This document shows positions 17,053-41,299 of a stretch of 64,000 bases of DNA, one piece after another. The notes under the pieces are model-generated. The model was not told the origin of the DNA and made no database searches. It saw only the letters and a program-made list of their open reading frames with translations. The DNA lies in assembly GCA_902602695.1 (NCBI GenBank), contig CACKRO010000001.1:96833-160832 (forward strand), read 5' to 3'. This DNA is from an uncultured Alphaproteobacteria bacterium (lineage in GTDB: Bacteria; Pseudomonadota; Alphaproteobacteria; HIMB59; GCA-002718135). The translations under genes and the position numbers were made by a program. Position 1 is the stretch's first letter. Each line of letters opens with the position of its first letter.

Positions 17053-17943
17053 ATGAAAATAGGTATTGATGTAGGGGGTACCAAAACTGAGGGCATTATT
17101 CTAAATCCAAATGGATCTGAAATAGATAGAAAAAGAATTAATACTGAAAAAAGTTATGATGGAACTATTAGTGGAATACTTTCCATAATAAATCATTTTG
17201 AGGAAAAACATGGTAAAGCAGAATCTATTGGAATGGGAATGCCAGGAGCCATATCAAATGATACAGCTTTAATTAAAAATGCTAATTCTATATGGTTAAA
17301 TGGTAAACCATTTAAGCAAGATTTAGATAAAATTCTCAACAGGAATATTAATATAGAAAATGATGCTAATTGTTTTACACTTTCTGAAGCAGTTGATGGC
17401 GCAGGAAAAGGTTATAAAGTTGTTTTTGGTGTAATTATTGGAACTGGTGTTGGTGGTGGAATAAGTATTAATCAAAAAGTTATAAGAGGACGTAATAGCA
17501 TAGGGGGTGAGTGGGGGCATATTGTATTACCAGGTAGAACTGAAGAAGAAAAAAAATATGTAAAAAAATGTTATTGTGGAAAAAATGGTTGCTTAGAAAC
17601 TTATATATCTGGGCCAGGATTTTCCTCAACTTACAATTTACGTTTCAATAAAAATTATAATTCCCATCAAATATTAGAAGGTTTTTTTAATAATGAAGAA
17701 AATAGTATTTTTGCACTAAATCAATATATTGATCATTTAGCTAGAGGATTATCTGTTGTCTGTAATATCCTTGATCCAGATGTAATTGTTTTAGGTGGCG
17801 GCATGTCTAATATAGATTTTATTTATGCAAATATAAATGATACTTTAAAAAAATATGTTTTTACGGATACACTTGAAACTAAAGTTGTAAAAAATGTTTA
17901 TGGAGATTCAAGTGGTGTGAGAGGCGCTGCTTGGCTTTCTTAA
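17053..17943 (+). CDS. mak: ROK-family sugar kinase (fructokinase/mannokinase Mak-like)
   Basis: 296 aa. MKIGIDVGGTKTE, NDANCFTLSEAVDGAG, GEWGH, zinc motif CYCGKNGCLETYISG, and ILDPDVIVLGGGMSN...GDSSGVRGAAWL, which closely resembles E. coli Mak as I recall it. Confidence 0.8.
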   Translation: MKIGIDVGGTKTEGIILNPNGSEIDRKRINTEKSYDGTISGILSIINHFEEKHGKAESIGMGMPGAISNDTALIKNANSIWLNGKPFKQDLDKILNRNINIENDANCFTLSEAVDGAGKGYKVVFGVIIGTGVGGGISINQKVIRGRNSIGGEWGHIVLPGRTEEEKKYVKKCYCGKNGCLETYISGPGFSSTYNLRFNKNYNSHQILEGFFNNEENSIFALNQYIDHLARGLSVVCNILDPDVIVLGGGMSNIDFIYANINDTLKKYVFTDTLETKVVKNVYGDSSGVRGAAWLS

Positions 17944-19391
17944 ATACCACCCATTGAAATATATTTTACAGTTAAATAATCATCAAGACCGTAACGAGAA
18001 CCCTCTCTTCCCATCCCAGATTCTTTAACACCTCCAAAAGGAACCTCTGCAATTGTTGGCAATCCATTATTTATTGAAACTATTCCATACTCTAAAGCCT
18101 CAGCAACTCTCCAAATTCTTCCAATATCTCTTGAGAAGAAATATGAAGCTAACCCGTATGGAGTATCATTTGCCATTTTAATAACTTCATCATCACTTGA
18201 AAATTTATATAGTGGTGCAACAGGACCAAATGTTTCTTCGAAAGTTATTTTTGCCCTTCTAGAAACATTAGATAAAACAGTTGGTTGATAAAAATTTCCA
18301 CCACTAGAATGTATATCACCACCAATAGCAATTTTAGCACCTGTATTTACTGCATCTTGAACATGATCAATAACTTTTTCTAAAGATGATTTATCAATTA
18401 GTGGGCCAGAAGTAATTCCATCTTCAAGACCATTACCAACAGTAATTTTACCAACTTCTTCGGTGAATTTTTTTAAAAATTCATCGTAAATTTTTTCGTG
18501 AACAAAAATTCTGTTAGTACAAATACAAGTTTGACCACTATTTCTAAATTTACTTTGCATTGCTCCAGCGACTGCTTCATCCATATCTGCATCATCAAAA
18601 ACAATTAAAGGAGCATGACCTCCAAGTTCCATAGAAACTTTCTTTACAGTTGAAGCACTTTGTTCTAGAAGAATTTTTCCAACTTCTGTTGATCCTGTAA
18701 ATGAAATTTTTCTAACTAAAGAATTACTTGTTAATTCCTTTCCGATTTCACTAGCCGAACCTGTTATTACATTAAACACACCATCTGGGAGACCTGCTTC
18801 CTTTGCAAGTACTGCAACTGCTAAAGCTGAAAAGGGTGTTTGACTTGCAGGCTTTACAACAGTAGTACATCCTACTGCCATAGCAGCTGCGCATTTTCTT
18901 GTAATCATCGAGTTTGGAAAATTCCATGGTGTGATTGCACCTACAACACCAACAGGCTGTTTTATAATCACAATTCTTTTACCTGGTCTTGGGTCTGGTA
19001 TTATATCTCCATATACTCTTTTTGCCTCTTCTGCATAGAACTCAATATATGAAGCACCCATTAATACTTCACCCTTTGCTTCAAACAGAGGTTTACCTTG
19101 CTCAATGGTCATTATTTTAGCTAAATCATCTGCATTTTCTGTGATTAGTTCTCCCCATTTTTTTAAAATAACTGATCTTTCTTTAGCAGTAGTTTCTTTC
19201 CAAGTTTGGAAAGCAGTATTAGCATCTTCTATAGCTTTTTTAGTTTCTGAAACTGAGCATTTTGGAACATTACCAATAATTTCAAAAGAGGCTGGATTAT
19301 TTACCTCAAGAGTTTTACCTGAAGAACTGTCAACCCATTCCCCATTTATAAAACATTTTTCTTTAAAGAGTGATTTGTTATTTAATTCCAT
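17940..19391 (-). CDS. gabD: succinate-semialdehyde dehydrogenase (NAD(P)+), ALDH superfamily
   Basis: 483 aa. ITPWNFP, ELGGHAP and GQTCICTNR catalytic motifs. The N-terminal FINGEWVDSSSGKTLEVNNPA pattern is GabD-like. Confidence 0.8.
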   Translation of the reverse strand: MELNNKSLFKEKCFINGEWVDSSSGKTLEVNNPASFEIIGNVPKCSVSETKKAIEDANTAFQTWKETTAKERSVILKKWGELITENADDLAKIMTIEQGKPLFEAKGEVLMGASYIEFYAEEAKRVYGDIIPDPRPGKRIVIIKQPVGVVGAITPWNFPNSMITRKCAAAMAVGCTTVVKPASQTPFSALAVAVLAKEAGLPDGVFNVITGSASEIGKELTSNSLVRKISFTGSTEVGKILLEQSASTVKKVSMELGGHAPLIVFDDADMDEAVAGAMQSKFRNSGQTCICTNRIFVHEKIYDEFLKKFTEEVGKITVGNGLEDGITSGPLIDKSSLEKVIDHVQDAVNTGAKIAIGGDIHSSGGNFYQPTVLSNVSRRAKITFEETFGPVAPLYKFSSDDEVIKMANDTPYGLASYFFSRDIGRIWRVAEALEYGIVSINNGLPTIAEVPFGGVKESGMGREGSRYGLDDYLTVKYISMGGI

Positions 19392-19434
19392 ATGTTTTAA
19401 TTATAATGCATAGTTTTAAATTAAGGAAAATGTA

Positions 19435-20538
19435 ATGACAATAGTTAATTCTTGGAATGAATGGGATCCATTAAAACATGTTATAGTTGGAGCAGTTGAA
19501 AATGCCAACATACCTCCTATTGAACCTGCGCTTGAACCAAAAATTAGTAAAGATAGTGGTATGGCAGGATCACACGGACCGCGTTCAAAGGAGTCAATTG
19601 ATAAAGCAAATTTACAATTAGAAAACTTTGTTAACATTTTAAATTCCCTAAATATAAAAGTTGATAGACCAACACCTATTGACTTTTGTCAGACTATCGA
19701 GACACCCGATTGGTCTAATGATGGTATGTTTGGTTGCATGCCTCCAAGGGATGTTATTCTTACTGTAGGCAATGAGATGCTAGAAGCGCCCATGTCTTAT
19801 AGATGTAGATGGTTTGAGTACCTTGCCTATAGACCACTACTTGAAAAATATTATTCAGAAGATAAAAACATGAAATGGGAATCGGCACCTAAACCAAGAT
19901 TAACAAATCAATCTTATAAGCCTAATTATCTTCCTAAAGGTATAACGGAAGAAGAACGATATAAAAAAATCGAAAACAGAGACATGATATTGACTGAAAA
20001 AGAACCACTTTTTGATGCAGCAGAAATTTTACGCTTTGGAAAAGATCTTTTTTATCATAACAATTTTACATCAAATTTAAGTGGCTTAGATTGGTTAAGA
20101 AGACATTATCCAAATCATCGCGTCCATCAAATTAATTTACCAGGCGATTTAATCCCAACTCATATTGATGCATGTTTTACTCCTATTAAACCAGGAGTTA
20201 TAATTATTAATCCGAATAGAAAAATATCATCTGAGCAAAGAAAAATTTTCGATGATAATAAATGGGAAATTCATGAGGCAGCTCCTTCTATTCATAATAG
20301 CCCACCACCTATGTGCTATTCATCTATTTGGTTATCAATGAATGTTTTGATAATTGATCCTAAAACTATATGCGTCGAGGCAACTGAAAAGAAAATGATT
20401 AAACAAATGGAAAGTTTTGGATTAGATGTTATTCCAGTTCCCTTTAGAGACGTTTATGCATTTGGTGGTAGTTTACATTGTGCAACAACTGATGTTTATA
20501 GAGAAGGTGAGTGTGAGGATTATTTTCCAAATCAATAA
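19435..20538 (+). CDS. amidinotransferase (glycine/inosamine amidinotransferase family)
   Basis: 367 aa. SWNEWDPLKHVIVG N-terminus, PTHIDACF (His) and C-terminal GGSLHCATTDV (catalytic Cys), characteristic of the AGAT/StrB amidinotransferase clade of the guanidino-modifying superfamily. Confidence 0.8.
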   Translation: MTIVNSWNEWDPLKHVIVGAVENANIPPIEPALEPKISKDSGMAGSHGPRSKESIDKANLQLENFVNILNSLNIKVDRPTPIDFCQTIETPDWSNDGMFGCMPPRDVILTVGNEMLEAPMSYRCRWFEYLAYRPLLEKYYSEDKNMKWESAPKPRLTNQSYKPNYLPKGITEEERYKKIENRDMILTEKEPLFDAAEILRFGKDLFYHNNFTSNLSGLDWLRRHYPNHRVHQINLPGDLIPTHIDACFTPIKPGVIIINPNRKISSEQRKIFDDNKWEIHEAAPSIHNSPPPMCYSSIWLSMNVLIIDPKTICVEATEKKMIKQMESFGLDVIPVPFRDVYAFGGSLHCATTDVYREGECEDYFPNQ

Positions 20539-21293
20539 TGGATAGTTTTAATCAAAATAACGTTAACGCCAATTTACATGATACAAACTTTTCTAGAATT
20601 GGTGTAATTACATTATCAACTGATTTTACCATTGAGCAAGATTTTAGAAAAATTTGCCATAATTTACCTGTTGACCTGTTTTTTAATAGGATACCTTTTT
20701 TAAATCCTCTAACTCGCGAAAATTATTTAAAGATGGCTGACCATATTGAAGAAACAACAAACCAAATATTACCCAATGAAAAAATACAAGTTGTAGCGTA
20801 TGGATGTACTTCGGGTACTATTGAAATTGGTGAAAAAAGAATAAGATCTGAAATTTTTAAAGCTAAACCTAATGCTTTAATTACTACACCTATTACAGCA
20901 GCTGTCAAAGCACTTAAATTGTTAAGCCATAAAAAAATTGCTGTTCTTACTCCATACCCAAAAGATGTTAATGTAAAAGTTTACAACTATTTAATCGATA
21001 GCGGATTTGAAATTAAATCATTTAGTTCATTTAATTTAAACTATGACTCGGAAATTGCCAAAGTTACTCAAGACAGTTTATTGCGAACAATTTCTTCAAT
21101 TGACTTAACAGATGTAGATAGTGTTTTTGTATCTTGCACTGCTTTAAAAGTAATTGATATTATTGAAAAATTAGAGTCAAAATTAAGCACAGATATCATT
21201 TCAAGTAACCAAGCTATTATTTGGGATTCATTAAGATTATCTAATATTAATCAAAAAATTGATGGTTTTGGTAATCTATTTAAATTACATTAA
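20538..21293 (+). CDS. Asp/Glu/hydantoin-racemase superfamily protein (arylmalonate decarboxylase/maleate isomerase-like; EutA-like)
   Basis: 251 aa. Two-Cys architecture, AYGCTSGT and FVSCTALK. 1-nt overlap with the amidinotransferase stop. Followed by EutB-like and EutC-like genes. Confidence 0.7.
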   Translation: MDSFNQNNVNANLHDTNFSRIGVITLSTDFTIEQDFRKICHNLPVDLFFNRIPFLNPLTRENYLKMADHIEETTNQILPNEKIQVVAYGCTSGTIEIGEKRIRSEIFKAKPNALITTPITAAVKALKLLSHKKIAVLTPYPKDVNVKVYNYLIDSGFEIKSFSSFNLNYDSEIAKVTQDSLLRTISSIDLTDVDSVFVSCTALKVIDIIEKLESKLSTDIISSNQAIIWDSLRLSNINQKIDGFGNLFKLH

Positions 21294-21305
21294 ATAGGGT
21301 TTAAA

Positions 21306-22268
21306 TTGATTACACTTCAACAGATAAAAGATGCACATAAGAAAATTTTACCTTACGTTAATTATACGCCTTTAATTCATTCTAATTTTCTATCAAAAAA
21401 TACTAAGGTAAAACTAAAATTAGAAAATTTTCAAATCACCGGATCATTTAAGTTAAGAGGTGCGGTTAATAAGCTACTTGCTTTAAGTGAAGATGACAAA
21501 AGCAAAGGAGTCATCGCAGTTTCTACAGGAAATCATGGGAAAGGCGTTGCTTATGCTTCAAAGGTATTAGGCATTCAATCAACAATATATATGTCTTCCA
21601 TGGTTCCAAAATATAGAAAAGAGGCGATTGAAAAATTAGGAGCAAAAGTTGAGATTGTTGGGAAGAATAGTGATGAAGCAGATTTATATGCAAAGCAAAT
21701 TGCGAAAGAAAAAAATATTCCATTAATCCACCCCTTTGATGATAAGGATATTATTATAGGCCAAGGTACAGTTGGACTTGAAATGCTTACTGAATTTCCT
21801 GAAGTTGATACAGTAATTATACCAACATCTGGCGGTGGTCTTATATCTGGAATAGCACAAGCTATTAAACTTCAAAAACCTGAGACAAAAATTATTGCCG
21901 TATCTATGGAAAGAGGTCCTTCAATGTATGAAAGTCTAAAAGAAGGTAGACCTGTTGATGTAGAGGAAACTGAAACTTTAGCTGATTGTTTAGGGGGTAG
22001 TATTGGTTTAGATAATAAATTTACATTTAATATTGTACAACAATACGTTGATGACTTTGTTTTAGTAAGTGAAGAAAAAATAGCTGAGGGAATTAGAATA
22101 AATTTTTTAGAACATAAAATTGTATCTGAAGGTGCTGCAGCAACAAGTGTAATGGTTGTTAAAGAAAAATTAACATCGCACTTAGGAAAAAATATAATTT
22201 GTTTAATTTGTGGTGGAAATATTGACTCGGAACTATTTAACAAAGTTTTAAGCCATGCTCATCCTTAA
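21306..22268 (+). CDS. PLP-dependent threonine/serine dehydratase-like protein (EutB-like)
   Basis: 320 aa, TTG start. PLP-lysine motif GSFKLRGAVNKL, STGNHGKG, glycine loop PTSGGGLISG. Confidence 0.78.
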   Translation: MITLQQIKDAHKKILPYVNYTPLIHSNFLSKNTKVKLKLENFQITGSFKLRGAVNKLLALSEDDKSKGVIAVSTGNHGKGVAYASKVLGIQSTIYMSSMVPKYRKEAIEKLGAKVEIVGKNSDEADLYAKQIAKEKNIPLIHPFDDKDIIIGQGTVGLEMLTEFPEVDTVIIPTSGGGLISGIAQAIKLQKPETKIIAVSMERGPSMYESLKEGRPVDVEETETLADCLGGSIGLDNKFTFNIVQQYVDDFVLVSEEKIAEGIRINFLEHKIVSEGAAATSVMVVKEKLTSHLGKNIICLICGGNIDSELFNKVLSHAHP

Positions 22269-23229
22269 TAAAAATGATATTATTCAATATGTAGATTTGA
22301 ATAAAAATCTCATTCCAATAATAGAAGACGCATTTAATAGTTTATCAAAGGGATTGGTAATGATGCCACCTATAATGAGAATTGATATTGAAAAATATCA
22401 TGGTGAATCAGATGTTAAAGCTGCATACGTTGAAGGTCTTGATAGTTTTGCAATAAAAATTGCTTCAGGTTTTTTTGATAATCCAAAACTTGGTTTGCCA
22501 TCTAGTAATGGACTGATGGTTTTATTAGATTCAAAGACTGGAGTTGTAAAATCTGTTTTATTAGATGAAGGTTATCTTACAGATACTAGAACCGCTATAG
22601 CAGGAGCAATAGCTACAAAATATTTATCAAATCAAAATGCTAATTCTGTTGGTATTATTGGGGCTGGAATTCAAGCCAAATTACAACTTCAAGCAATAAT
22701 GTTAGTTAGAAAAATAAATAAAATTATAGTTTGGACAAGAGATGAGACAAAAGCGAATCAATTTATAGAAAGTTTCAAAAATTTAGATATAGATTTGTAT
22801 ATAGCTTCTTCTTGCAAAGAATTGGCAAGCTTATCAGAAATAATTGTTACAACGACTCCTAGTAAAAAACCGCTTTTGGAATTTGATTGGATAAATAAAG
22901 GAACTCACATAACAGCAATGGGATCAGATGCAGAACAAAAAAATGAATTAGATCCTCATATGTTAAAACATTGCGATCAATATGTGCCTGACAATCAATT
23001 ACAAACAAGTGTTTTAGGTGAATTACATCATGCTTTAAAACAAAATATAATTTCTTCCAAAGAAAAATTTAATGAACTTGGCGATATAATTAACGATCCA
23101 AGCTTAGGAAGAAAAAATAAAGAAGATATAACGATATGTGATTTGACAGGAACTGGCGTACAAGATACTGCAATAGCAAGATTTGCTTATAATATTTGTA
23201 AAAAAAATAATTTAGGCATCAATATTTAA
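22255..23229 (+). CDS. ornithine cyclodeaminase/mu-crystallin family protein (EutC-like)
   Basis: 324 aa. Rossmann motif GIIGAGIQAKLQ and LTDTRTA motif of the OCD family. 14-nt overlap with the preceding gene. Confidence 0.78.
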   Translation: MLILNKNDIIQYVDLNKNLIPIIEDAFNSLSKGLVMMPPIMRIDIEKYHGESDVKAAYVEGLDSFAIKIASGFFDNPKLGLPSSNGLMVLLDSKTGVVKSVLLDEGYLTDTRTAIAGAIATKYLSNQNANSVGIIGAGIQAKLQLQAIMLVRKINKIIVWTRDETKANQFIESFKNLDIDLYIASSCKELASLSEIIVTTTPSKKPLLEFDWINKGTHITAMGSDAEQKNELDPHMLKHCDQYVPDNQLQTSVLGELHHALKQNIISSKEKFNELGDIINDPSLGRKNKEDITICDLTGTGVQDTAIARFAYNICKKNNLGINI

Positions 23230-23232
23230 TTT

Positions 23233-24675
23233 ATGAGTCAAGCAATAATAAAAAAAACGTCTGATTATTTCAAATCAAAAGGAGTTGTCTTACCTAGTAT
23301 AAGTGAACTTCAAGATCCTCAAATTATTAATGATGATATTAAAAATTCTCTAAAAAAAATAAATAACAATGATATCAATCCTCTTAACCTCTTTAGAGTT
23401 CATTGGTTTAATAAAAGAGATCAATCAGGTTTTGGAAATGAGCCTGAATATATTGTACTTCCATCAGAATTCACAGGTGTAAAGGCAAAGATAATTGTAA
23501 ATATGGGACGATATTTTCCCTTAATAACAGCTCATAAAGTTTTGGCAGCTTATGGTTGTTTGCTTCCAAGAATATTGAATGGAACTTTTGATTATGAAAA
23601 ACATAAAGCAGTTTGGCCTTCAACAGGAAATTATTGTAGGGGTGGAGTGGCAATATCTCGGATAATGGGTCTTAATAGTATTGCAATACTTCCTGAAGGA
23701 ATGAGTAATGAGAGATTTGAATGGTTGAATAATTGGGTTGAAGATAAAAAAAATATCATAAAGACAAAAGGCACAGAAAGTAATGTTAAAGAAATCTACG
23801 ATGCTTGTAATGAATTAAAAAAAGATAATCAAAATGATATAATAAATCAATTTGATGAGTATTATAATTACGGTATTCATCGTTCTGTAACTGGTCCATC
23901 GTTTGAAAAATCATTTCTTAAAGTTAAAGGTAATAGTAATTTAACTCCTAGGTTTTACGTAAGTGCTTCAGGATCAAGTGGTACTCTAGCAGCAGGAGAT
24001 TATCTTAAAGATAAATTACAGACGAAGATTGCAGTTGTTGAAGCTTTGGAGTGTCCAACATTGCTTCATGGAGGTTATGGTGAACATAATATACAAGGAA
24101 TTGGTGACAAACATGTTCCCCTTATTCATAATGTAATGAATACAGATTTTGTTGTAGATGTTTCTGATCAAGCTACCAATAATCTAAATATGATTTTTAA
24201 TACTGAAATAGGAAAAAATTTTTTAATTGAGAAAAAAAATTTTGATCCTGATTTTGTTTCTCGTCTTCCTGAATTTGGTTTTTCAGCAATAGCAAATATA
24301 TTGGCATCAATAAAGCTAGCTAAATATATGGATTTAAATAGTGATGATGCAATTATAACGGTTGCTACTGATGGTGCTGATTTATATATGTCAGAATTAA
24401 ACAAGACCATTGCTGATTTTAAAAATAATTATGATGAAATTGTTTGTGCTGAATTATTTGGACAACACTTATCAGGAGTATCTACTGATAATATGCTTGA
24501 ACTCTCTCACATGGATAAGAAAAGAATATTTAATTTAGGTTACTTTACTTGGGTAGAGCAACAAGGTGTTAGTCTTGAAGAATTTGAAAAAAGAAAAGCT
24601 CAAAAATTTTGGAATTCACATTATGATTATATGCTTTCTCTAGACAATCAGATTAAAGAATTTAATAATATGTAG
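23233..24675 (+). CDS. fold-type-II PLP-dependent enzyme (cysteine synthase/CBS-like, long 480-aa form), specificity unknown
   Basis: STGNYCRGG (Ser-x-Gly-Asn loop) and SASGSSGTLAAG (phosphate-binding Gly loop) fit the PALP fold. It has N- and C-terminal extensions compared with about 310-aa cysteine synthases. Confidence 0.6.
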   Translation: MSQAIIKKTSDYFKSKGVVLPSISELQDPQIINDDIKNSLKKINNNDINPLNLFRVHWFNKRDQSGFGNEPEYIVLPSEFTGVKAKIIVNMGRYFPLITAHKVLAAYGCLLPRILNGTFDYEKHKAVWPSTGNYCRGGVAISRIMGLNSIAILPEGMSNERFEWLNNWVEDKKNIIKTKGTESNVKEIYDACNELKKDNQNDIINQFDEYYNYGIHRSVTGPSFEKSFLKVKGNSNLTPRFYVSASGSSGTLAAGDYLKDKLQTKIAVVEALECPTLLHGGYGEHNIQGIGDKHVPLIHNVMNTDFVVDVSDQATNNLNMIFNTEIGKNFLIEKKNFDPDFVSRLPEFGFSAIANILASIKLAKYMDLNSDDAIITVATDGADLYMSELNKTIADFKNNYDEIVCAELFGQHLSGVSTDNMLELSHMDKKRIFNLGYFTWVEQQGVSLEEFEKRKAQKFWNSHYDYMLSLDNQIKEFNNM

Positions 24676-24678
24676 GTT

Positions 24679-25833
24679 ATGAAAACTCAGTCATTACATA
24701 ACCAATTAGTAGAATGGCGCCATGATCTTCATATGCACCCTCAAATAAGTTTTGAAGAAGAATATGCTGCAGCAAAAGTGTCAAAACTTCTAAAAGAGTG
24801 TGGAATAGAAGTTCATACTGGTATTGCCAGAACTGGAGTAGTTGGAATTTTAAAAAAAGGAAATAGTTCAAAATCAATAGGTATAAGAGCTGACATGGAT
24901 GCTCTTCCTATTCATGAAACTAATAATTTTAGTTATAAGTCAAAGTTTGATAACAGAATGCATGCATGTGGACATGATGGTCACACTACAATGTTATTAG
25001 GTGCAGCAAAATATCTATCAGAAAAAGGTAACTTTAATGGAACAGTATATTTTATTTTTCAACCTGATGAAGAGAATACTTTTGGCGCAAGAACAATGAT
25101 AGATGAAGGTTTGTTTGATAAATTTAACATTGATGAAGTTTACGCTATGCACAACATTCCTAATATGGAAATTGGAACATTTGGCACAAGAAAAGGAGCT
25201 ATTACAGCAAGTGAAAATTTATTTGAAATTGAAATAAAAGCCAAAGGTGGGCATGCTGCATTACCTCATATGGGCGTTGATGCAATAACTGTTGGTTCCC
25301 AAATAGCTGTAGCACTCCAATCAATAGTATCTAGAAAATTAAATCCAGCAGATAATGGTATAGTTTCTATTACTGAATTTATAACTGATGGTAAAAAAAA
25401 TGTTTTGCCAGGTATGGTAAAAATGACTGGTGACGCAAGAGCTTTATCAAAAGAAACGAATGAAAAAATTGCTTCAAAAATGTTACAAATTGTTGAAGGC
25501 GTTTGTAATGCACATGGAGTTAATGGCAGTGTAAAATATGAAACAACCTGTCCTGTAACTTTTAATTCAAAAAACCAAACTGAGTCTGCCACAAAAGCTG
25601 CAGTTTCATTACTTGGAAGCGATAAGTGTAATGGTGATATTGAACCGCGTTTATTCTCAGAAGATTTTTCTGTTATGGCAAACGAAAAACCTGGCTGCTT
25701 TGTTTTAATGGGTAACGGTAAATCAGATCAACATTCCAGACCATTACATGCTGATAATTATGATTTTAATGATGAATTATTAGTCATAGGTTCTTCATAT
25801 TGGACAGAATTAGTAGAACAACAATTAAAATAA
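24679..25833 (+). CDS. M20D amidohydrolase (hippurate hydrolase / N-acyl-amino-acid amidohydrolase family)
   Basis: 384 aa. RADMDALPI, MHACGHDGHTTMLLGAAKYL and FQPDEE motifs of the M20D subfamily. Confidence 0.82.
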   Translation: MKTQSLHNQLVEWRHDLHMHPQISFEEEYAAAKVSKLLKECGIEVHTGIARTGVVGILKKGNSSKSIGIRADMDALPIHETNNFSYKSKFDNRMHACGHDGHTTMLLGAAKYLSEKGNFNGTVYFIFQPDEENTFGARTMIDEGLFDKFNIDEVYAMHNIPNMEIGTFGTRKGAITASENLFEIEIKAKGGHAALPHMGVDAITVGSQIAVALQSIVSRKLNPADNGIVSITEFITDGKKNVLPGMVKMTGDARALSKETNEKIASKMLQIVEGVCNAHGVNGSVKYETTCPVTFNSKNQTESATKAAVSLLGSDKCNGDIEPRLFSEDFSVMANEKPGCFVLMGNGKSDQHSRPLHADNYDFNDELLVIGSSYWTELVEQQLK

Positions 25834-26988
25834 ATGTTTTCTGAAAACCTAAATAAACTAAAGAAAAAAATGTCTGAGAATAATATTGATCTCTCAATTA
25901 TAACAGATGATGACTCTATATATTATTTTACAGGATATCACGACTTTCTTCATATGGATTTTAATCGACCAACATTATTAGTTGTTTCAAATGATCATAA
26001 AACTTACTTAATTACACCTCTACTTGATGTTTTATTAGTTCCCGAAACTTGTCCTGTTGACAAAGTCGAAACATGGAATGATGGTATTGGAAATGAATGG
26101 AGAGAATTATTACCACAAACTATAAATCAGCATAAAAATATTTTTATTGAAAAATTTAAAATAAATTCAATGGTTAAAAGTTATTTAGACGAAATACTTC
26201 AACATGATCCTGGCGATTTAACAAAATTAATAAATAATATAAGAATGATTAAATCCAATCATGAATTGAATATTGCTCGCCATGCTGGAGAGGTAGGTAT
26301 GGCTATGATGGAAGCAGCTAAAAAAACAATTGGTAATAATGTTCCTGAATATGAGGTTGCACTTGCTCAATCACAAGCTGGAACAAGAAAAGCTGCAGAG
26401 CTTTTAAAAAAATTTTATCCTGATAATATCAATATGTCTCCAAATATTCACTTTTTACCTGTTATGACATCAGGTCATGATTTACCTAAAACTCACCATC
26501 GTGCTTCAACCAAAATTATAAAAAAAGGTGATCCCGTATTCGTATGTTATTGTGGTTCAACAAATTTCCACAGGTTTAAATTAGGATTTGATAGAATATT
26601 TTGGGTTGAAGAAATTCAATCTAAAGAACAGATAAAAGCTTTTGAAACTGCAGTTAAATCTCAAAAAGCTGCTCTTGATATTCTTGGTCCTGGAGTAACA
26701 GCTGAAGAAGTTCATGCTGCTTATGCTGATGCTATACAGTCTGAAGGATATCCCTATCCTACATTTCGATGTGGAAGAGGAACTGGTTTTAGTTTTTTAG
26801 AAGAACCACAATTAGTAGTTGGAAATAAAACTGTTTTAAAGCCTGGCATGGTATTTGCAGTAGACGGAGGAGCTAGTGCAAATAAATTTAGATCACAGGT
26901 TGGTGATAGTTTTATAATTACAGAGGATGGATATGAGCAAATTACACATCATTCTAAAAAATTTGAAGATTTGATTCTTTCAAATTAA
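25834..26988 (+). CDS. M24 metallohydrolase (Xaa-Pro dipeptidase/creatinase-like)
   Basis: 384 aa. Creatinase-type N-domain (IYYFTGY) plus a pita-bread C-domain (GRGTGFSFLEEP, VFAVDGG). Starts immediately after the M20 stop. Confidence 0.75.
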   Translation: MFSENLNKLKKKMSENNIDLSIITDDDSIYYFTGYHDFLHMDFNRPTLLVVSNDHKTYLITPLLDVLLVPETCPVDKVETWNDGIGNEWRELLPQTINQHKNIFIEKFKINSMVKSYLDEILQHDPGDLTKLINNIRMIKSNHELNIARHAGEVGMAMMEAAKKTIGNNVPEYEVALAQSQAGTRKAAELLKKFYPDNINMSPNIHFLPVMTSGHDLPKTHHRASTKIIKKGDPVFVCYCGSTNFHRFKLGFDRIFWVEEIQSKEQIKAFETAVKSQKAALDILGPGVTAEEVHAAYADAIQSEGYPYPTFRCGRGTGFSFLEEPQLVVGNKTVLKPGMVFAVDGGASANKFRSQVGDSFIITEDGYEQITHHSKKFEDLILSN

Positions 26989-27012
26989 TTGTGACTAAAT
27001 AACTCTTGTTTC

Positions 27013-27045
27013 AATAGTTAAAATATTTTACTCTAATTAACTATT
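27013..27045. promoter_or_regulatory. 9-bp perfect inverted repeat upstream of soxB (candidate operator)
   Basis: AATAGTTAA (27013-27021) and TTAACTATT (27037-27045), separated by 15 nt, in the 75-nt gap before soxB. Confidence 0.2.
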
Positions 27046-27063
27046 CAATAATTAAATAAATAA

Positions 27064-28329
27064 ATGACAAAATTTAATGCATGGAACGTAATTAAAAATG
27101 GATTAAATGGTCAATCATATTGGACTAGGCAATGGCGTGATCCGGAACCAAAAAAAAATTATGATGTTATAATAATTGGCGGAGGCTTACACGGACTTGC
27201 CACTGCATATTATCTTGCGAAAAATCATAATATTAAAAATGTAGCAGTTTTGGAAAAAGGTTGGATCGGGGGAGGAAACGCTGGACGTAACACGACTATT
27301 GTAAGATCAAATTATATGATGCCAGGAAATCATGAATTTTATGAGCACTCTTTAAAATTATGGGAAAATTTAAGTCATGATTTAAATTACAATGTAATGT
27401 TTAGTCAACGAGCTCACGTTTCATTGTTTCACAGTCCTGGTGCTAAAGATTCTGTTTCACGAACGTATAATATTATGAGGCTTCATGGAACAGATGCTGA
27501 GCTTTGGGATTTAAAAAAACTTAAGAAAAAAATACCTCATCTAAATTATAATAATTCCAGATTTCCTATTTTAGGAGCAGCTGTCCAAAAAAGAGCAGGC
27601 AATGCAAGACATGATGCAGTTGCATGGGGATATGCAAGAGCTGCTGATACACTCGGTGTAGATATTCTACAAAATTGTGAAGTAACAGGTTTCACAAGAA
27701 CAAATGGAATGATTGAAAGTGTTCAAACTTCTCGAGGAATAATAAAAGGAAAAAAAATAGGATTTGCTGTTGCTGGTAATACTTCTGTATTATGGCAAAT
27801 GGCAGAATTAGGAAATTTACCAATTGAATCTCACAAATTACAAGCTTTTGTATCTGAAGCAGTTAAACCTCTTTTAGATCAAGTGGTAGTTTATGGAGTA
27901 GGTGGTGCACATTTTTATATCTCTCAGTCTGATAAAGGTAGTATGGTTTTTGGTGGTGATCTCGATTGGTATAAATCGTATGCTCAAAGAGGAAATTTAC
28001 CAATGGTTCAAGATGTTGCTGAAGCAGCCATGGCAATTTTTCCTTCTCTTGGCAGAATAAGATTACTTCGTCATTGGGCTGGCGTTATGGATATGACTAT
28101 GGATGGATCTTTTTTTATTTGTAAAACACCAATATCAAATCTCTATTTAAATGCTGGCTGGAACTATGGAGGTTTTAAGGCTAGTCCAGCATCAGGCTGG
28201 TATTTTGCTGATTTAATTGCAAATGAGAACCCACACAATTATGTGCAGAATCATAATTTAGAGAGATTTGAAAAAGGCATCAACATAGATGAACGTGGTG
28301 CTGGACCAGATCCAAAATTGCATGGTTAG
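27064..28329 (+). CDS. soxB: heterotetrameric sarcosine oxidase, beta subunit
   Basis: 421 aa. N-terminal WTRQWRDPEPKKNYDVIIIGGGLHGLATAYYLAK is typical of SoxB. Followed by the delta, alpha and gamma subunits. Confidence 0.9.
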   Translation: MTKFNAWNVIKNGLNGQSYWTRQWRDPEPKKNYDVIIIGGGLHGLATAYYLAKNHNIKNVAVLEKGWIGGGNAGRNTTIVRSNYMMPGNHEFYEHSLKLWENLSHDLNYNVMFSQRAHVSLFHSPGAKDSVSRTYNIMRLHGTDAELWDLKKLKKKIPHLNYNNSRFPILGAAVQKRAGNARHDAVAWGYARAADTLGVDILQNCEVTGFTRTNGMIESVQTSRGIIKGKKIGFAVAGNTSVLWQMAELGNLPIESHKLQAFVSEAVKPLLDQVVVYGVGGAHFYISQSDKGSMVFGGDLDWYKSYAQRGNLPMVQDVAEAAMAIFPSLGRIRLLRHWAGVMDMTMDGSFFICKTPISNLYLNAGWNYGGFKASPASGWYFADLIANENPHNYVQNHNLERFEKGINIDERGAGPDPKLHG

Positions 28330-28614
28330 ATGATTAGAATAAATTGTCCTTATTGTGGAGAAAGAGATCATAGTGAATTTAGTTATGGGGGAGATGCTAC
28401 AATAAAATATCCATCTTTAGACTCTTCAGAAAAAGAATGGACAGAAGCAATATTTTTTAGAAAAAATATAAAAGGTTTTCAATTAGAAACATGGCATCAT
28501 ACTAATGGATGTAGAATGTGGTTAAAAATTGAACGTTCGACAGTAACTCATGAAATTAGGAGTGTTAAACCCTGCCATCCAGATTTACAGAAAGTTGTAG
28601 AAAATAATAAATGA
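28330..28614 (+). CDS. soxD: sarcosine oxidase, delta subunit
   Basis: 94 aa. MIRINCPYCGERDHSEF zinc-ribbon-like N-terminus. Canonical position. Confidence 0.88.
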   Translation: MIRINCPYCGERDHSEFSYGGDATIKYPSLDSSEKEWTEAIFFRKNIKGFQLETWHHTNGCRMWLKIERSTVTHEIRSVKPCHPDLQKVVENNK

Positions 28615-31568
28615 AAACAAGTAGATTAAAAAATTATGGAAAAATTAATAGAGATAATGATTTATCTTTTACTTGGGATAATAAAAAATACAAAGGTTTT
28701 AAAGGCGATACACTAGCATCAGCATTGTTAGCTAATAATATTGGAGTTGTTGGAAGAAGTTTTAAATACCATAGACCAAGAGGTATATTTTCAAGTGGTG
28801 TTGAAGAATCTGGTGCTTTAGTAACTGTAGGTTCAAAAGATAGAAGAGATCCTAATGTAAGGGCAACGACCCAGGAATTATATGATGGTTTAAAAGCCAG
28901 TGGTCAGAATGCTTTCCCCAATGTAAATTTTGACCTTGCTGGAATTAATAATTATCTAGGTAGGTTTTTTGCATCTGGTTTTTATTATAAAACTTTTATG
29001 GGAATACCACCTTTTGAATGGGGAAAAGGTACAGCTATATGGATGTTTTTTGAAAAGTTTATAAGAAAAGCAGCTGGAATGGGAAGTGCTTCTACGTTAC
29101 CTGATCCAGATTCTTATGAACACGCACACGATTTTTGTGATGTAATTGTTGTTGGTTCAGGGCCATCCGGTATTGCAGCCGCAATTGAGGCAGCGGAGAA
29201 AAAATTAGATGTTATTTTAGTAGAGCAAGACAGTCTTATTGGAGGAGATCAACTTTCAGAATATGAATTTGATAGCTCACATATTGAAAATCAAATTAAA
29301 AACCTTGGTATAAAAGTAATGACTAGGACAACAGCATTTGGATTATACGATAATTGTGTTGTTGGTTTATTGGAAAGAGTAACAGACCATTTATTGTTAC
29401 CAGATAAAACACTACCACGTCAAAGATTTTGGACTATTAGAGCTAAACATATAATTGTTGGTGCGGGAGCGATAGAAAGACATATTGCATTTAATAATAA
29501 TGATATTCCTGGCGTAATGACAGTGAATGCTTCAAAGCATTATTTAAATAGATATGGAGTACTAACAGGTAAAAAAATTGTAATTACTGCAAATAATGAC
29601 TCTGTTTATGAAACTGCAGAACTATTATCTGAAGCTGGAGCAAATGTTACTGTTCTTGACTCACGAACGAATTTTGAAATTGAAACCAACAAAACTTTTG
29701 AAATTAGAAGAGGGTATGTGCCTTATAATATTAACGGTTCAAAAAAAATTGATAGTTTAGACATATCAAAAAGTAAAAATATTAGTAAATCTGAAACAAT
29801 AAATTGTGATCAAGTTTTATTATCAGGTGGTTGGTCTCCTGCAGTACATTTGTTATCGCATAGAGGTGTAAAGCCTAAATGGGATTATGAAAATGCATGT
29901 TTTTTACCGAGTGATACCAAAGAGAATATCACAATGATTGGTTCTTCGAGAGGATTATGGAATAAAAATGATTGTATTGCTTCTGGAGTTGCAGGTGCTA
30001 CTGATGCATTAAATCGTTTAGGTATTTCCAAAACAAATTATTTTTTTCCAAAACCTGGTGGATGGAAGAATCCAATAAAACCACTTTACGAAGTAAAATA
30101 TAATAAATCTAGATCAAAAAGTTTTGTTGATTATCAACACGATGTAACTTCAGATGATGTACGACTGGCACACCGTGAAGGTTTCATTTCAGTAGAACAT
30201 CTTAAAAGATATACAACTTTGGGTATGGCTAATGATCAGGGAAAGATGGGAAACATTATTGGATTATCCTTAATGGCTGATCTTTTAAATAAAGAAATTC
30301 CAGAAGTTGGAACGACTGTATTCAGACCTCCTTACACTCCAGTTTCTATTGGAGCTTTAAGTGGAAGAAATGTTGGAAAACATTTTAGACCATTAAGAGT
30401 TACACCAATGCATCAATGGAATATTGATCATGGTGCTAAGATGATTGAAGTAGGTTTGTATCAAAGACCTTGGTATTATCCTAAAGAAAATGAAACATTA
30501 AGTAACTCTTATATTAGAGAAGCAACAACAGTAAGAAAAACAGTTGGAATTTGTGATGTTACTTCACTAGGTAAGATTGCTATTCAAGGACCAGACTCTT
30601 CCGAATTTTTAAATAGAATCTATTCTAATGGTTTTTCAAAACTAAAAGTTGGGAAAGCTAGATACGGTATCATGTTGCGTGATGACGGCATTGTAATGGA
30701 TGATGGAACATCTTGGAGATTAGCAGAAAATGAATATTTTATGACGACATCTACAGGTGAAGCTGCAAAAGTAATGTCATGGTTAGAAGAATTACTACAA
30801 ACTAGATGGACAAATCTTAATGTTAATGTGACTAGTGTTTCTGAACAATGGGCCGGTGTATCAATTGCAGGACCTAAATCTAGAGAAGTTCTTAATAATT
30901 GTGTCATTGATTCTTCAGTTATAAATAATAATAACTTACCTTTTATGGGTGTTACCTCAACTTTTCTTAAAGGTAAAATTCCTTGTAGAATTGCAAGAAT
31001 TAGTTTCTCAGGTGAATTAGCTTTTGAAGTTTATGTTAAATCAGATTTTTCCAATACAATGATGGATCTACTTTGGGAAAATGCAAAAAAAAATGATGGG
31101 TGTTTGTACGGATTAGAGGCTTTGGGCGCACTTAGAGTAGAAAAAGGTCATGTGACAGCTGCAGAGCTTGATGGAAGGGTAACAATTGATGATGCAGGTT
31201 TAAGCAAAATGGCTTCTTCAAAAAAATCATATATTGGAAGCGCAATGAGAAAACGAGGAGTATTAAAAAATAATGATAGAGAAATTTTAGTTGGTTTTTT
31301 TCCTGCAAACTTAAAGGAAACTTTTAATGCTGGAACTATTGTGTGTGAAAAACATAATATTAAAGGACAGGGTATTGGAAGAATTACTTCAGTCACTTAT
31401 TCTCCAGAACTTGGACATTGGATTGGTATAGGTTTTGTAAAAGGTGGTTTAGATAGATGGAAAGATACTATTTTAGTTGGCGCAGATCCTGTGAGAAATA
31501 AACAAATGAATTTAAAAATTGTTTCGCCACATATGGTAGATCCAAAAGGGGAAAGAATGCATGCTTAG
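28611..31568 (+). CDS. soxA: sarcosine oxidase, alpha subunit
   Basis: 985 aa. N-terminal 2Fe-2S-like/TFTWDNKKYKGFKGDTLASALLAN segment, DVIVVGSGPSGIAAA dinucleotide fold, C-terminal GcvT-like folate-binding domain. ATGA overlap with soxD. Confidence 0.9.
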   Translation: MKTSRLKNYGKINRDNDLSFTWDNKKYKGFKGDTLASALLANNIGVVGRSFKYHRPRGIFSSGVEESGALVTVGSKDRRDPNVRATTQELYDGLKASGQNAFPNVNFDLAGINNYLGRFFASGFYYKTFMGIPPFEWGKGTAIWMFFEKFIRKAAGMGSASTLPDPDSYEHAHDFCDVIVVGSGPSGIAAAIEAAEKKLDVILVEQDSLIGGDQLSEYEFDSSHIENQIKNLGIKVMTRTTAFGLYDNCVVGLLERVTDHLLLPDKTLPRQRFWTIRAKHIIVGAGAIERHIAFNNNDIPGVMTVNASKHYLNRYGVLTGKKIVITANNDSVYETAELLSEAGANVTVLDSRTNFEIETNKTFEIRRGYVPYNINGSKKIDSLDISKSKNISKSETINCDQVLLSGGWSPAVHLLSHRGVKPKWDYENACFLPSDTKENITMIGSSRGLWNKNDCIASGVAGATDALNRLGISKTNYFFPKPGGWKNPIKPLYEVKYNKSRSKSFVDYQHDVTSDDVRLAHREGFISVEHLKRYTTLGMANDQGKMGNIIGLSLMADLLNKEIPEVGTTVFRPPYTPVSIGALSGRNVGKHFRPLRVTPMHQWNIDHGAKMIEVGLYQRPWYYPKENETLSNSYIREATTVRKTVGICDVTSLGKIAIQGPDSSEFLNRIYSNGFSKLKVGKARYGIMLRDDGIVMDDGTSWRLAENEYFMTTSTGEAAKVMSWLEELLQTRWTNLNVNVTSVSEQWAGVSIAGPKSREVLNNCVIDSSVINNNNLPFMGVTSTFLKGKIPCRIARISFSGELAFEVYVKSDFSNTMMDLLWENAKKNDGCLYGLEALGALRVEKGHVTAAELDGRVTIDDAGLSKMASSKKSYIGSAMRKRGVLKNNDREILVGFFPANLKETFNAGTIVCEKHNIKGQGIGRITSVTYSPELGHWIGIGFVKGGLDRWKDTILVGADPVRNKQMNLKIVSPHMVDPKGERMHA

Positions 31569-32124
31569 ACATTCAGCGTTAGATAAAATTTATAAAGTTG
31601 GAAAATATTCATCAAGTGAAAGACAATCATTAACATTTAAAGAATTAAAAAGTTTAGAAATTTTACAAATTACTTGTTGGGCTGACAAAATTGATGAAAT
31701 AAATAATCTATTAATAAATAATTTAAAAATTAAAAATATTCCCGGTTTCAATAAAGGGATTTTGTTTGAGAATAAATCATTATGGAGAATGGAACCTTTG
31801 AAATGGTGGTTATTTAGTAAAGAAATTGAAGTAAGTGAGCAAATTGCTTCAATTTTAGACTTGTCTCATGCTTTCACAGGTATTGAAATTAAAGGAGATA
31901 ATTCATCATTATTTTTAAATAGACATCTTCCGATTGATTTAAGAGCTAGAAATTTTCCAGATTTATCATCCGCTAGCACAGCTATGCATCATGTAAGTGT
32001 TAAGCTATTTAAAATAAACTCGAATAACTACTGTTTATATATACCAAGAGGTTTTGCTTTATCAATTTGGGAGATGCTTCTTGAAACAGCAGATCAGTTT
32101 GGATATGAAGTATTAGAGAGATAG
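31561..32124 (+). CDS. soxG: sarcosine oxidase, gamma subunit
   Basis: 187 aa in the canonical slot after soxA (8-nt overlap). Size and position fit SoxG; the sequence itself is poorly conserved. Confidence 0.75.
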   Translation: MLRHSALDKIYKVGKYSSSERQSLTFKELKSLEILQITCWADKIDEINNLLINNLKIKNIPGFNKGILFENKSLWRMEPLKWWLFSKEIEVSEQIASILDLSHAFTGIEIKGDNSSLFLNRHLPIDLRARNFPDLSSASTAMHHVSVKLFKINSNNYCLYIPRGFALSIWEMLLETADQFGYEVLER

Positions 32125-32143
32125 AAAGATTATCTAAAAAATT

Positions 32144-33319
32144 ATGATATTTTCACAAGATGAATTTAATTCAAGAATTGCAAAAGTAAAACAGTCTATG
32201 AATAAAAGAGGTGTTGATATTCTATTAACTACCGATCCCTCTAATATGAATTATCTAACTGGTTATGATGGGTGGTCATTTTATGTTCCTCAAGGAGTAA
32301 TAATTTCTATAGATGAAGATCAGCCATTTTGGTTTGGAAGAAAGCAAGATTCGAATGGAGCTAGGATTACAACTTTTTTAAATGAAGAAAATATATTTGG
32401 TTATCCTGAGCAACTAATTCAATCACCACCATTACATCCATATGATTATGTAGTTGAATTATTTAAAGACAAAAATTGGTCAAGTAAAAATATTGGCGTT
32501 GAAATGGATAGCTATTATTATACTGCAGAAAATCATAGGAGATTAAAAGATAATTTAACAAATGCTAAATTTATTAATGCGCATCTTCTAATTAATTGGG
32601 TTAGATATGTAAAATCTGAAAATGAAATAAAATTCATGAAAGATGCTGGCACACTTGTGAAAGGAGGAATGGAAACAGCATTTGATTCAATAAAAGAAGG
32701 TGTAAAACAAAGTACAGTTGCAGGAAAAATTCAAAATACTCTCATTGCTGGAAATGACACAACACAAATGGGAGGAGAATATTCAGGCTTAGGTATAATA
32801 CTTGCAAGTGGGAGATCAGCATCAGCATCACACTTAACTCCTAGTGATAAAAAATTTGAAAATAATGAAGGAACAATTATTGAATTAGGTGGCGTGAAAC
32901 ATCGTTATCACTGTGCTTTATCCAGAACTGTGTATATTGGTAAACCTGATCCAAAGATATCGGATACATTAAAAATAACAAATGAAGGTATTGAGAAAGC
33001 TTTAGAACAAACAAATCCAGGTAATAGTTGTCATAATGTTGCTGTTGCTTTTTGGTCAGTATTAGAAAAATATGGATTAGAAAAAGAGTCAAGAGCTGGT
33101 TACTCAATTGGTATTGGTTATCCTCCTGATTGGGGAGAACACACCCTTAGTATACGGAAAAATGAAAAGACACTTTTAGAACCTAATGTTACCTATCATC
33201 TTATGTGTGGAATGTGGATGGATACATGGGGATTAGAACTAAGTGAATCAGTTAGAGTAACAGAGTCAGGTTATGAATTACTTACTCAAGTCCCTAGAGA
33301 TTTGCATATAATAAATTAA
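32144..33319 (+). CDS. M24 hydrolase of the creatinase / ectoine-hydrolase (DoeA/EutD) type
   Basis: 391 aa. N-domain DPSNMNYLTGYDGWSFYV, which I associate with the DoeA/EutD subfamily, plus a pita-bread C-domain (HRYHCALSRT, GYSIGIGYPPDWGE). Confidence 0.7.
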   Translation: MIFSQDEFNSRIAKVKQSMNKRGVDILLTTDPSNMNYLTGYDGWSFYVPQGVIISIDEDQPFWFGRKQDSNGARITTFLNEENIFGYPEQLIQSPPLHPYDYVVELFKDKNWSSKNIGVEMDSYYYTAENHRRLKDNLTNAKFINAHLLINWVRYVKSENEIKFMKDAGTLVKGGMETAFDSIKEGVKQSTVAGKIQNTLIAGNDTTQMGGEYSGLGIILASGRSASASHLTPSDKKFENNEGTIIELGGVKHRYHCALSRTVYIGKPDPKISDTLKITNEGIEKALEQTNPGNSCHNVAVAFWSVLEKYGLEKESRAGYSIGIGYPPDWGEHTLSIRKNEKTLLEPNVTYHLMCGMWMDTWGLELSESVRVTESGYELLTQVPRDLHIIN

Positions 33320-35666: not shown

Positions 35667-35720
35667 TTATTAAATATGTATAGTTAATTTTTGTTTTTTC
35701 ATTAATAGAAGTATTAATCT

Positions 35721-37612: not shown

Positions 37613-37633
37613 GCATCATTACAAATATTTAAT

Positions 37634-38722: not shown

Positions 38723-38852
38723 ATTTAAAAATATCCATATAATTAGCCACTTTTTTTTATTTTTAAGCCTTTTTTTTAATTAAGCTACATGTTATTACTA
38801 AGTCATTACGGACATAATCTTAAGATTAATTAATTAAAATAGGAGGATATAT

Positions 38853-39956: not shown

Positions 39957-39987
39957 GCTTGATAATTTAAATTTACTATTTTAATAT

Positions 39988-40020
39988 AAAGGCGAGAATT
40001 TCTCGCCTTTATTTATTTTA
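39988..40020 (+). terminator. intrinsic terminator/attenuator hairpin between the SBP and permease genes
   Basis: AAAGGCGAGA-ATT-TCTCGCCTTT (10-bp stem, 39988-40010) followed by ATTTATTTT. It is the only GC-rich hairpin of this kind I found in an intergenic region of the window. Confidence 0.7.
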
Positions 40021-40030
40021 GGAGGATTGT

Positions 40031-41296: not shown

Positions 41297-41299
41297 TTT

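Follow-up and report, generated by a model that had tools for sequence, protein, structure and literature searches.

A putative variant ectoine-type catabolic module, with an amidinotransferase and a further pyridoxal-phosphate enzyme added, at the front of a gene array in a marine alphaproteobacterium

The stretch of DNA analysed here (64 kb, called the window; contig CACKRO010000001.1 of assembly GCA_902602695.1, from an uncultured alphaproteobacterium) is densely coded at about 30% G+C and holds seven closely spaced genes that begin with an amidinotransferase of the L-arginine:glycine type (AGAT) and continue with relatives of the ectoine utilisation genes eutA, eutB and eutC. With a confidence somewhat above even, we read these genes as a variant (hydroxy)ectoine-type catabolic module carrying two add-ons, AGAT and a 480-aa pyridoxal-phosphate (PLP) enzyme named PLP480 here, in a modular and lineage-specific array for nitrogen-rich osmolytes. 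A variant of the ectoine/5-hydroxyectoine route would be the most economical explanation, since five of the seven genes, together with a neighbouring aldehyde dehydrogenase (ALDH) and a second M24 hydrolase (M24b), recur with importers or hydrolases of the ectoine type in unrelated bacteria. All functions were inferred from homology and gene context, positions are those of the whole window, and the source genome is 74% complete. The features that the argument needs are the following.

17940 to 19391, minus strand: ALDH of the NADP-type succinate-semialdehyde dehydrogenase (SSADH) family, divergent from the array and a candidate for an Ssd/DoeC-like last step; passes TIGR01780
19435 to 20538, plus strand: AGAT-type amidinotransferase; matches PDB 1jdw/1jdx, C-terminal GGSLHCATTDV
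20538 to 21293, plus strand: EutA-like protein with a two-Cys racemase/isomerase fold; TIGR02990
21306 to 22268, plus strand: EutB-like PLP enzyme of the threonine dehydratase family, TTG start; NF005680, full-length PALP
22255 to 23229, plus strand: EutC-like enzyme of the ornithine cyclodeaminase/mu-crystallin family; NF006141, TIGR02992
23233 to 24675, plus strand: PLP480, a 480-aa fold-type-II PLP enzyme with a CysK/CBS-like core; AlphaFold model, weak PALP
24679 to 25833, plus strand: M20 amidohydrolase, candidate deacylase of the N-acetyl-diaminobutyrate type; TIGR01891, YxeP 1ysj
25834 to 26988, plus strand: M24a, a pita-bread hydrolase with Creatinase_N; Pfam M24 and Creatinase_N
27064 to 32124, plus strand: soxB-soxD-soxA-soxG, heterotetrameric sarcosine-oxidase type; TIGR01373, TIGR01372
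32144 to 33319, plus strand: M24b, a homologue of ectoine hydrolase of the DoeA/EutD type and last gene of the array; TIGR02993, 6twk
37583 to 42196, plus strand: ABC importer in PotA-PotD-PotB-PotC order, candidate uptake system; found by tblastn with proteins of a Pelagibacter locus (L023)

The original prediction had described a seven-gene operon on one strand with spacers from -14 to +12 nt. The open reading frame listing reproduces the genes, their strand and their spacing (-1, +12, -14, +3, +3 and 0 nt between consecutive genes), and the order is real, but the unit is longer, as the seven are only the front of a 13-gene one-strand array that runs through soxBDAG from AGAT to M24b (19435-33319, plus strand). 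Half of the other same-strand pairs in the window are equally tight (17 of 33 co-directional neighbours are spaced by 12 nt or less), and tight spacing alone is therefore weak evidence of an operon at this locus. Between 17000 and 36000, promoter-like sites fall below the level of shuffled sequence and mark no boundary inside the array, nor is an array boundary marked by any of the 11 terminator-like sites, a number similar to the 7.5 in shuffles, and an Rfam scan of the window gave a single tRNA and no riboswitch. With spacing uninformative, comparative data must carry the argument.

Outside the lineage, each of the three closest M24a homologues (50-59% identical) is immediately preceded by an M20 homologue of 48-60% identity. 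They come from unrelated, high-GC families of non-streamlined bacteria (G246, G259 and G407), and the class-wide samples comprised 200-400 genomes, with 400 genomes of the class queried with four of the proteins. The gene order is ALDH, M20, M24a, EutA-like in G246 (L114) and EutA-like, M20, M24a in G407 (L116), and the ALDH that heads the former cluster is 38% identical to that of the window. In G259 (L115, G259:C1:1934000-1953999) the order is EhuD-EhuA-EutB-EutC-CN-hydrolase-M24-class III aminotransferase-M20-M24a; EhuD, EhuA and EutB there pass the ectoine-specific equivalog cut-offs of NCBIfam, a DoeA-like gene of 580 bits is found shortly before the cluster, which has two other DoeA-like M24 genes besides M24a. 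The M20 enzyme and an M24 protein without metal ligands thus look like an accessory module of ectoine-type clusters that has so far escaped recognition. EutA, for its part, pairs with M20-M24a in L114 and L116, and with a DoeA-like M24 in two other places: in Pelagibacter (L023, 3960-10418), where the EutA-like and DoeA-like genes are followed by an importer in PotA-D-B-C order, and in a related single-cell genome (L113). The EutA-DoeA-like pairing is found in G285 as well. EutA, EutB, EutC, M20 and M24a are thus linked outside the lineage; AGAT and PLP480 are not. Co-conservation of all seven genes, the lack of which the original prediction had named as telling against it, breaks down for these two.

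Such recurrence also bears on the simplest alternative, that the array is pure juxtaposition, in which genome streamlining has packed seven unrelated single-enzyme functions that share no substrate. That tight spacing is the genomic norm here, that the promoter and terminator scans set no site of the array apart and no Rfam element was found, and that the flanks are conserved as much as the cluster would all agree with it. It does not account for the M20-M24a pair, with or without EutA, EutB/EutC and ALDH, in three unrelated families that are neither AT-rich nor streamlined, or for the EutA-DoeA-like pair in Pelagibacter and G285, and we regard it as highly improbable.

The assignment of genes 2-4 to EutA-, EutB- and EutC-like families held up, as the Eut models are by far the best matches for each of them, even if the model scores mostly stay below the cut-offs and only EutC passes one, NF006141. 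The EutA-like protein scores 210 bits on TIGR02990 (cut-off 318) with the next-best family at 87 bits, has invariant cysteines at positions 90 and 200 (C90, C200), and has by sequence the fold of maleate isomerase and arylmalonate decarboxylase; its closest homologue is from Pelagibacter (44-46% identical). The EutB-like protein has a full-length PALP match and, on NF005680, a score of 379 bits (cut-off 413); it shares 46% identity with the EutB that belongs to a eutABC trio in G242, and 41% with the Ehu-linked EutB of G259. The EutC-like protein, 47-50% identical to EutC of G259 and G242, passes the cyclodeaminase model NF006141 (452.6 bits, cut-off 408) and scores 412 bits on TIGR02992 (cut-off 471).

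Among the seven, an M24 and an M20 hydrolase occupy the place that EutD and EutE have in the known eut clusters. Their families hold as originally predicted, and the pair does accompany EutA/B/C-like genes in other families, but M24a, at about 60 bits, is not the EutD homologue. That is M24b, which scores 462 bits over its full length on TIGR02993 (cut-off 613), was the M24 picked out when the genome was searched with that model, and matches the solved ectoine hydrolase DoeA of Halomonas (6twk) at E 1.3e-108; judged by these matches, it is M24b and not M24a that is the real DoeA/EutD homologue of the array. The M24 proteins encoded immediately after EutA share 68% identity with M24b in L113 and 49% in Pelagibacter L023. 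M24a, by comparison, reaches 54-61 bits on the DoeA models, whose cut-offs are 575-613, and was rejected as a DoeA orthologue on that ground. Nor does it take the place of DoeA, since in the window as in G259 a DoeA homologue is present alongside it. At the five positions aligned with what we take to be the metal ligands of Pyrococcus prolidase (1pv9), M24a has Cys, Gly, Arg, Asp and Asp, and would thus lack the canonical dimetal ligands. We expect M24a to act together with the M20 deacylase and to hydrolyse a cyclic or amidine-type substrate without the help of a metal. The M20 enzyme is YxeP/ILR1-like, passing TIGR01891 (323 bits, cut-off 154) and matching YxeP (1ysj) at E 5e-73, and its score on the DoeB2 model NF038260 (315 bits, cut-off 550) is the same as on generic amidohydrolase models.

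Creatinase itself lacks the dimetal ligands, and the array could then be seen as a glycine-harvesting island for creatine-type compounds, in which a creatinase-like M24a feeds sarcosine to SoxBDAG, AGAT turns guanidinoacetate and ornithine into glycine and arginine, and the eut-like genes are incidental. M24a has Creatinase_N, lies directly upstream of soxB and matches creatinase 1chm over its full length (E 6e-15, 58 bits); AGAT has similarity to animal AGAT at the 45% level; and in Pelagibacter an M24 gene and a PLP aldolase of a glycine-releasing type often lie beside AGAT. M24a is however nearer to prolidases (1pv9, E 7e-21), and creatinase was rejected as its identity since the 1chm match is the weaker one. 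Elsewhere its homologues accompany M20, EutA-like, EutB/EutC and Ehu genes and not sox genes or AGAT, three other genes stand between M24a and soxB in a related genome (L001), and the M24 next to AGAT in Pelagibacter is just 25% identical to M24a. A creatine-type island is on this evidence very doubtful.

The ALDH passes the SSADH subfamily model TIGR01780 (721.5 bits, cut-off 646) and keeps its position in the related loci L001, L012, L013 and L113; in S. meliloti an SSADH-type gene is likewise divergent from the eut genes (PMC5924519). No regulator and no importer was found among the 13 array genes, and no AstE/AspA-type deacetylase (EutE/DoeB) was seen in the array. The Pot-order importer, about 4 kb downstream of the array, has a homologue in the importer behind the EutA-like/DoeA-like pair of Pelagibacter (tblastn identities of 69% for the ATPase, 38% for the binding protein and 53-57% for the permeases), and may serve to take up the same solute. 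The homA/homB genes near the array are accounted for by a 2026 paper on homarine (PMC13236597).

Within the lineage, the comparison covers a MarineAlpha5 bin and two further genera from the family of the window. In NCBI, close homologues are labelled Pelagibacteraceae bacterium, MarineAlpha5 and the like. The window is nevertheless placed in an order of two families, and Pelagibacter-type genomes, judged by the genome G536 described below, fall into a different order. Pelagibacter proper was for that reason rejected as its identity, and the lineage is SAR11-like and probably of the HIMB59/AEGEAN-169 type (PMC10308909). The same seven genes, with the same order and flanks, are found in L001/L013 and in L012, where AGAT is only 63-66% identical, and the order of the block is kept in at least three genera of this streamlined marine lineage. 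SoxB passes TIGR01373 (611 bits, cut-off 529) and SoxA reaches 1161 bits on TIGR01372 (cut-off 1164). The sox genes keep their position in L012 and L013, and in the MarineAlpha5-type genome M24b again comes after them. MgtE, BioY, ROK and the divergent ALDH are conserved as flanks, with soxB downstream, and because these are conserved along with the cluster, the locus is one inherited arrangement and not a repeated assembly. In L001 (17575-19705), genes for a proline-racemase-family protein, a DUF4396 protein and a thioredoxin-like protein lie between M24a and soxB; they are not in the window.

The sister family is different: in three of its genomes that are at least 94% complete, AGAT, EutC, PLP480 and M24b were not found, and AGAT is present in only 1 of 71 sampled genomes, against 66 of 79 in the window's family. 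Among five genomes of the window's family without AGAT, four are also without PLP480 and the fifth carries it at a contig end. Modularity shows directly in L113 (2525-11638, corresponding to 17940-36707 of the window), which has the ALDH on the minus strand followed by AGAT, EutA, M24b, a DmdA-like gene, homA/homB and M19, with AGAT overlapping EutA by four bases. The block from EutB to SoxG (21306-32124 in the window) is an 11-kb indel between EutA and the DoeA-type gene, and since the same flanks are present without it, the array is modular.

Over its full length AGAT matches human L-arginine:glycine amidinotransferase at E 3e-77 (1jdw/1jdx); the matches to SxtG, HsvA and StrB1 are weaker. 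The claim that it belongs to an AGAT-type family rests on the human match and on the GGSLHCATTDV end, and finds no echo in the domain databases, the protein having no Pfam or NCBIfam match at E <= 0.001. In the alignment to 1jdw the equivalents of Asp170, Asp254, His303, Asp305, Arg322, Ser355 and Cys407 are retained, and those of Asn300 and Met302 are Ile and Thr (Tyr and Ile in related marine homologues). We take the residue numbering and the roles, i.e. catalytic Cys-His-Asp and guanidinium/carboxylate binding, to be those of the AGAT structure papers, and the conserved residues predict a catalytically intact enzyme. Relatives are encoded in more than 570 stretches of the species-genome collection, so the family clearly has a function. 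The NCBI name of its members P0006, P0010, P0016, P0075 and P0106 is “serine/threonine protein kinase”. The naming of AGAT is thus an annotation gap that touches hundreds of marine genomes.

The surroundings of AGAT elsewhere have little in common with those in the window. Six further alphaproteobacterial families have homologues of 57-63% identity, with the other six genes absent within 10 kb, and none of 80 Pelagibacter AGAT loci adjoins EutA, EutB, EutC, PLP480, M20 or M24a; the gene-neighbourhood check that the original prediction had proposed therefore found amidinotransferase and eutABC together in none of these. The Pelagibacter slot is variable (L009:6946-12663, L030-L109), with EamA, an optional prolidase-like M24, AGAT and an optional GntG-like PLP aldolase, the M24 being present in roughly half of the 80 loci and the aldolase likewise; the M24 is the one with 25% identity to M24a mentioned above. 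In G536, a genome of another order (1.3 Mb, 30% G+C), AGAT is 92-96% identical to that of Pelagibacter HTCC8051, HIMB123, HIMB1748 and others. In other bacteria the neighbours are a mixture of transposases, a methyltransferase of the cyclopropane-fatty-acid-synthase type, efflux genes, TRAP and M20, ArgJ and an arginase-family gene. The last is from a metagenomic contig (L111:5740-8134), where the arginase-family gene is divergent from the AGAT homologue, a single case that hints at guanidino-compound chemistry.

A Pelagibacter genome that is 99% complete has AGAT on another contig than its EutA-like/DoeA-like pair, and EutB, EutC, PLP480 and M24a were not found in it. It had been proposed that amidinotransferase and ornithine cyclodeaminase are coupled through ornithine. 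As this genome has AGAT, an EutA-like and an EutD-like gene and no EutC, AGAT does not need the cyclodeaminase-type enzyme. With no adjacency in independent lineages, and with the eut-type clusters of G246, G259, G407 and Pelagibacter lacking AGAT, it looks like a separable add-on to the eut-type genes.

PLP480 is the other add-on, and it is lineage-specific. Its Pfam PALP match (32 bits) is below the cut-off; the AlphaFold model (pLDDT 89) has cysteine synthase, beta-cyanoalanine synthase and CBS as its top PDB folds (target TM about 0.8), with N- and C-terminal helical extensions around the core, and K102 is invariant in 17 homologues. Homologues in nine other genomes are 50-55% identical and have none of the other six genes nearby. 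Their neighbours (a sigma factor, an ABC ATPase, a CoA-transferase and once an arginase-family gene) give no function, and a look-up in the Protein Atlas gave unnamed PALP clusters only. The arginase-family gene lies directly upstream of the PLP480 homologue in L019 (9592-12138), again a single case hinting at guanidino-compound chemistry.

If we put these parts together along the published proposals for DoeA/EutD, EutE and EutABC (PMC5924519, PMC13188858), a variant ectoine-type route could run as follows. M24b would likely open the tetrahydropyrimidine ring to give N-acetyl-(hydroxy)diaminobutyrate, with M24a in an accessory or related role beside it, and the M20 enzyme would remove the acetyl group. 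The hydroxylated intermediate would be handled by EutA as a two-Cys epimerase, EutB as a PLP dehydratase and EutC as an NAD(P)H imine reductase or cyclodeaminase, and a transaminase from elsewhere in the genome together with the ALDH would lead to aspartate. AGAT most likely transfers amidino groups to or from arginine/ornithine, with guanidinoacetate or another small guanidino acid as the partner, on a route of its own beside the eut-type genes that would salvage nitrogen and glycine.

Several points weigh against this reading. None of the seven proteins passes an ectoine-specific cut-off, the model that EutC does pass being named only “cyclodeaminase”, M24a is very far from DoeA, and the chemistry of EutABC has never been shown biochemically (PMC5924519). 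The array contains no diaminobutyrate transaminase, and the best match to the dat model in the 74% complete genome has 141 bits (cut-off 402); the same genome gave no match to an EhuB-type binding protein, TRAP-type Ueh not having been searched for. AGAT and EutA overlap in all versions of the locus, by one base here between the AGAT stop and the EutA start and by four in L113, and their adjacency survives the 11-kb indel. Of six other AGAT-bearing families, five (G213, G285, G406, G529 and G536) have a DoeA-like gene of 470-600 bits, compared with about 25 of 200 background genomes, a small count that is uncorrected for ecology or phylogeny. AGAT may therefore be functionally tied to the ectoine-type genes.

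These last points are what one would expect if the array encoded a single undescribed pathway for a guanidino or cyclic-amidine compound, with AGAT as an integral part that would add an amidino group to an intermediate or take it away, for instance on a diamino acid released by the hydrolases, and EutC consuming an ornithine-like product. AGAT stands first, three diverged forms of the locus couple its translation to that of EutA, AGAT, EutA and the DoeA-like gene stay together in the trimmed L113, the co-occurrence with DoeA-like genes exceeds a background of about 12%, the three best EutA-like matches of the class sample are all in AGAT-bearing genomes, and arginase-family genes lie beside one AGAT and one PLP480 homologue. 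All AGAT-EutA adjacencies however share the flanks BioY, ROK and ALDH and go back to one ancestral locus, and AGAT adjoins no eut-like gene in the six other families or the 80 Pelagibacter loci. The 99% complete Pelagibacter genome has it without EutB, EutC, PLP480 and M24a, the G259 Ehu-linked, G246 and G407 clusters do without it, and the co-occurrence count has the limits just given. We therefore find a single AGAT-dependent pathway unlikely. What stands of the undescribed guanidino or cyclic-amidine route that was originally predicted is that eut-like genes adjoin AGAT; no evidence requires that AGAT leads one common route. That AGAT works in the same route as the eut-like enzymes by amidino transfer and not hydrolysis, acting on a diamino-acid or guanidino intermediate of osmolyte breakdown so that nitrogen is captured directly as arginine, seems rather unlikely to us; should it be true, it would be a catabolic role of a kind never shown for the AGAT family.

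Taking the variant ectoine-type module as the preferred reading, the finding is of moderate interest, given the abundance of these organisms and that ectoine catabolism is undescribed in their lineages. Surface-ocean bacterioplankton is dominated by SAR11-type cells. Ectoine is a quantitatively important exometabolite of phytoplankton (PMC13012070). A literature search that combined SAR11/Pelagibacter with amidinotransferase, guanidinoacetate or hydroxyectoine catabolism gave no paper on the cluster or on a SAR11-type amidinotransferase, and we found none on ectoine degradation by streamlined lineages or on the reason for which an AGAT-type enzyme has been retained in hundreds of their species. 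We believe that what is added here is the M20-M24a pair in unrelated families, including an Ehu-linked cluster, the EutB to SoxG indel, and the genome-level count of AGAT and DoeA-like genes. If the enzymes act as proposed, the array would help in assigning the many marine genes that lack an annotation or carry a wrong one. It also offers testable units, namely the DoeA-like M24b, the recurring pair of M20 and metal-less M24, and the separable amidinotransferase.

Compared with the canonical eutABCDE-ssd-atf/doeABCD cluster, the array shares the EutA/B/C-like trio in the alphaproteobacterial order A-B-C, a DoeA-type M24 in the form of M24b, an SSADH-family dehydrogenase alongside, and the long one-strand layout. 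It differs in that 9 kb, soxBDAG included, separate EutC from the DoeA homologue downstream, that an M20 enzyme stands in for the EutE/DoeB deacetylase of the AstE/AspA type, and that there is a second, very divergent M24 without metal ligands. A transaminase and an EnuR/AsnC regulator are absent from the array, AGAT and a 480-aa enzyme with a CysK fold are added, and the eut-like proteins, EutC excepted, are below equivalog cut-offs. The view that an amidinotransferase is foreign to the known eut system agrees with a survey of ectoine clusters, in which a word search finds no mention of the term (PMC13188858).

The Ehu-linked cluster of G259 shares EutB, EutC, the M20-M24a pair (48% and 55% identical) and the presence of at least two different M24 hydrolases, but belongs to a large high-GC genome, includes its own Ehu ABC importer and a class III aminotransferase, and is without AGAT, PLP480 and sox genes. 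The Pelagibacter locus L023 has homologous EutA (46%), DoeA-like M24b (49%) and importer ATPase (69%), with the enzymes directly preceding the importer; EutB, EutC, PLP480 and M24a are missing there, and AGAT is on another contig. Vertebrate AGAT/GATM (1JDW) is similar over the full length, and its Cys-His-Asp and guanidinium/carboxylate-binding residues are kept here, with the replacement of Asn300 and Met302 by Ile and Thr as a difference. Set against vertebrate AGAT/GATM, SxtG, HsvA and StrB1, the gene described here stands apart in its context, as it heads a catabolic-looking array and not a biosynthetic cluster.

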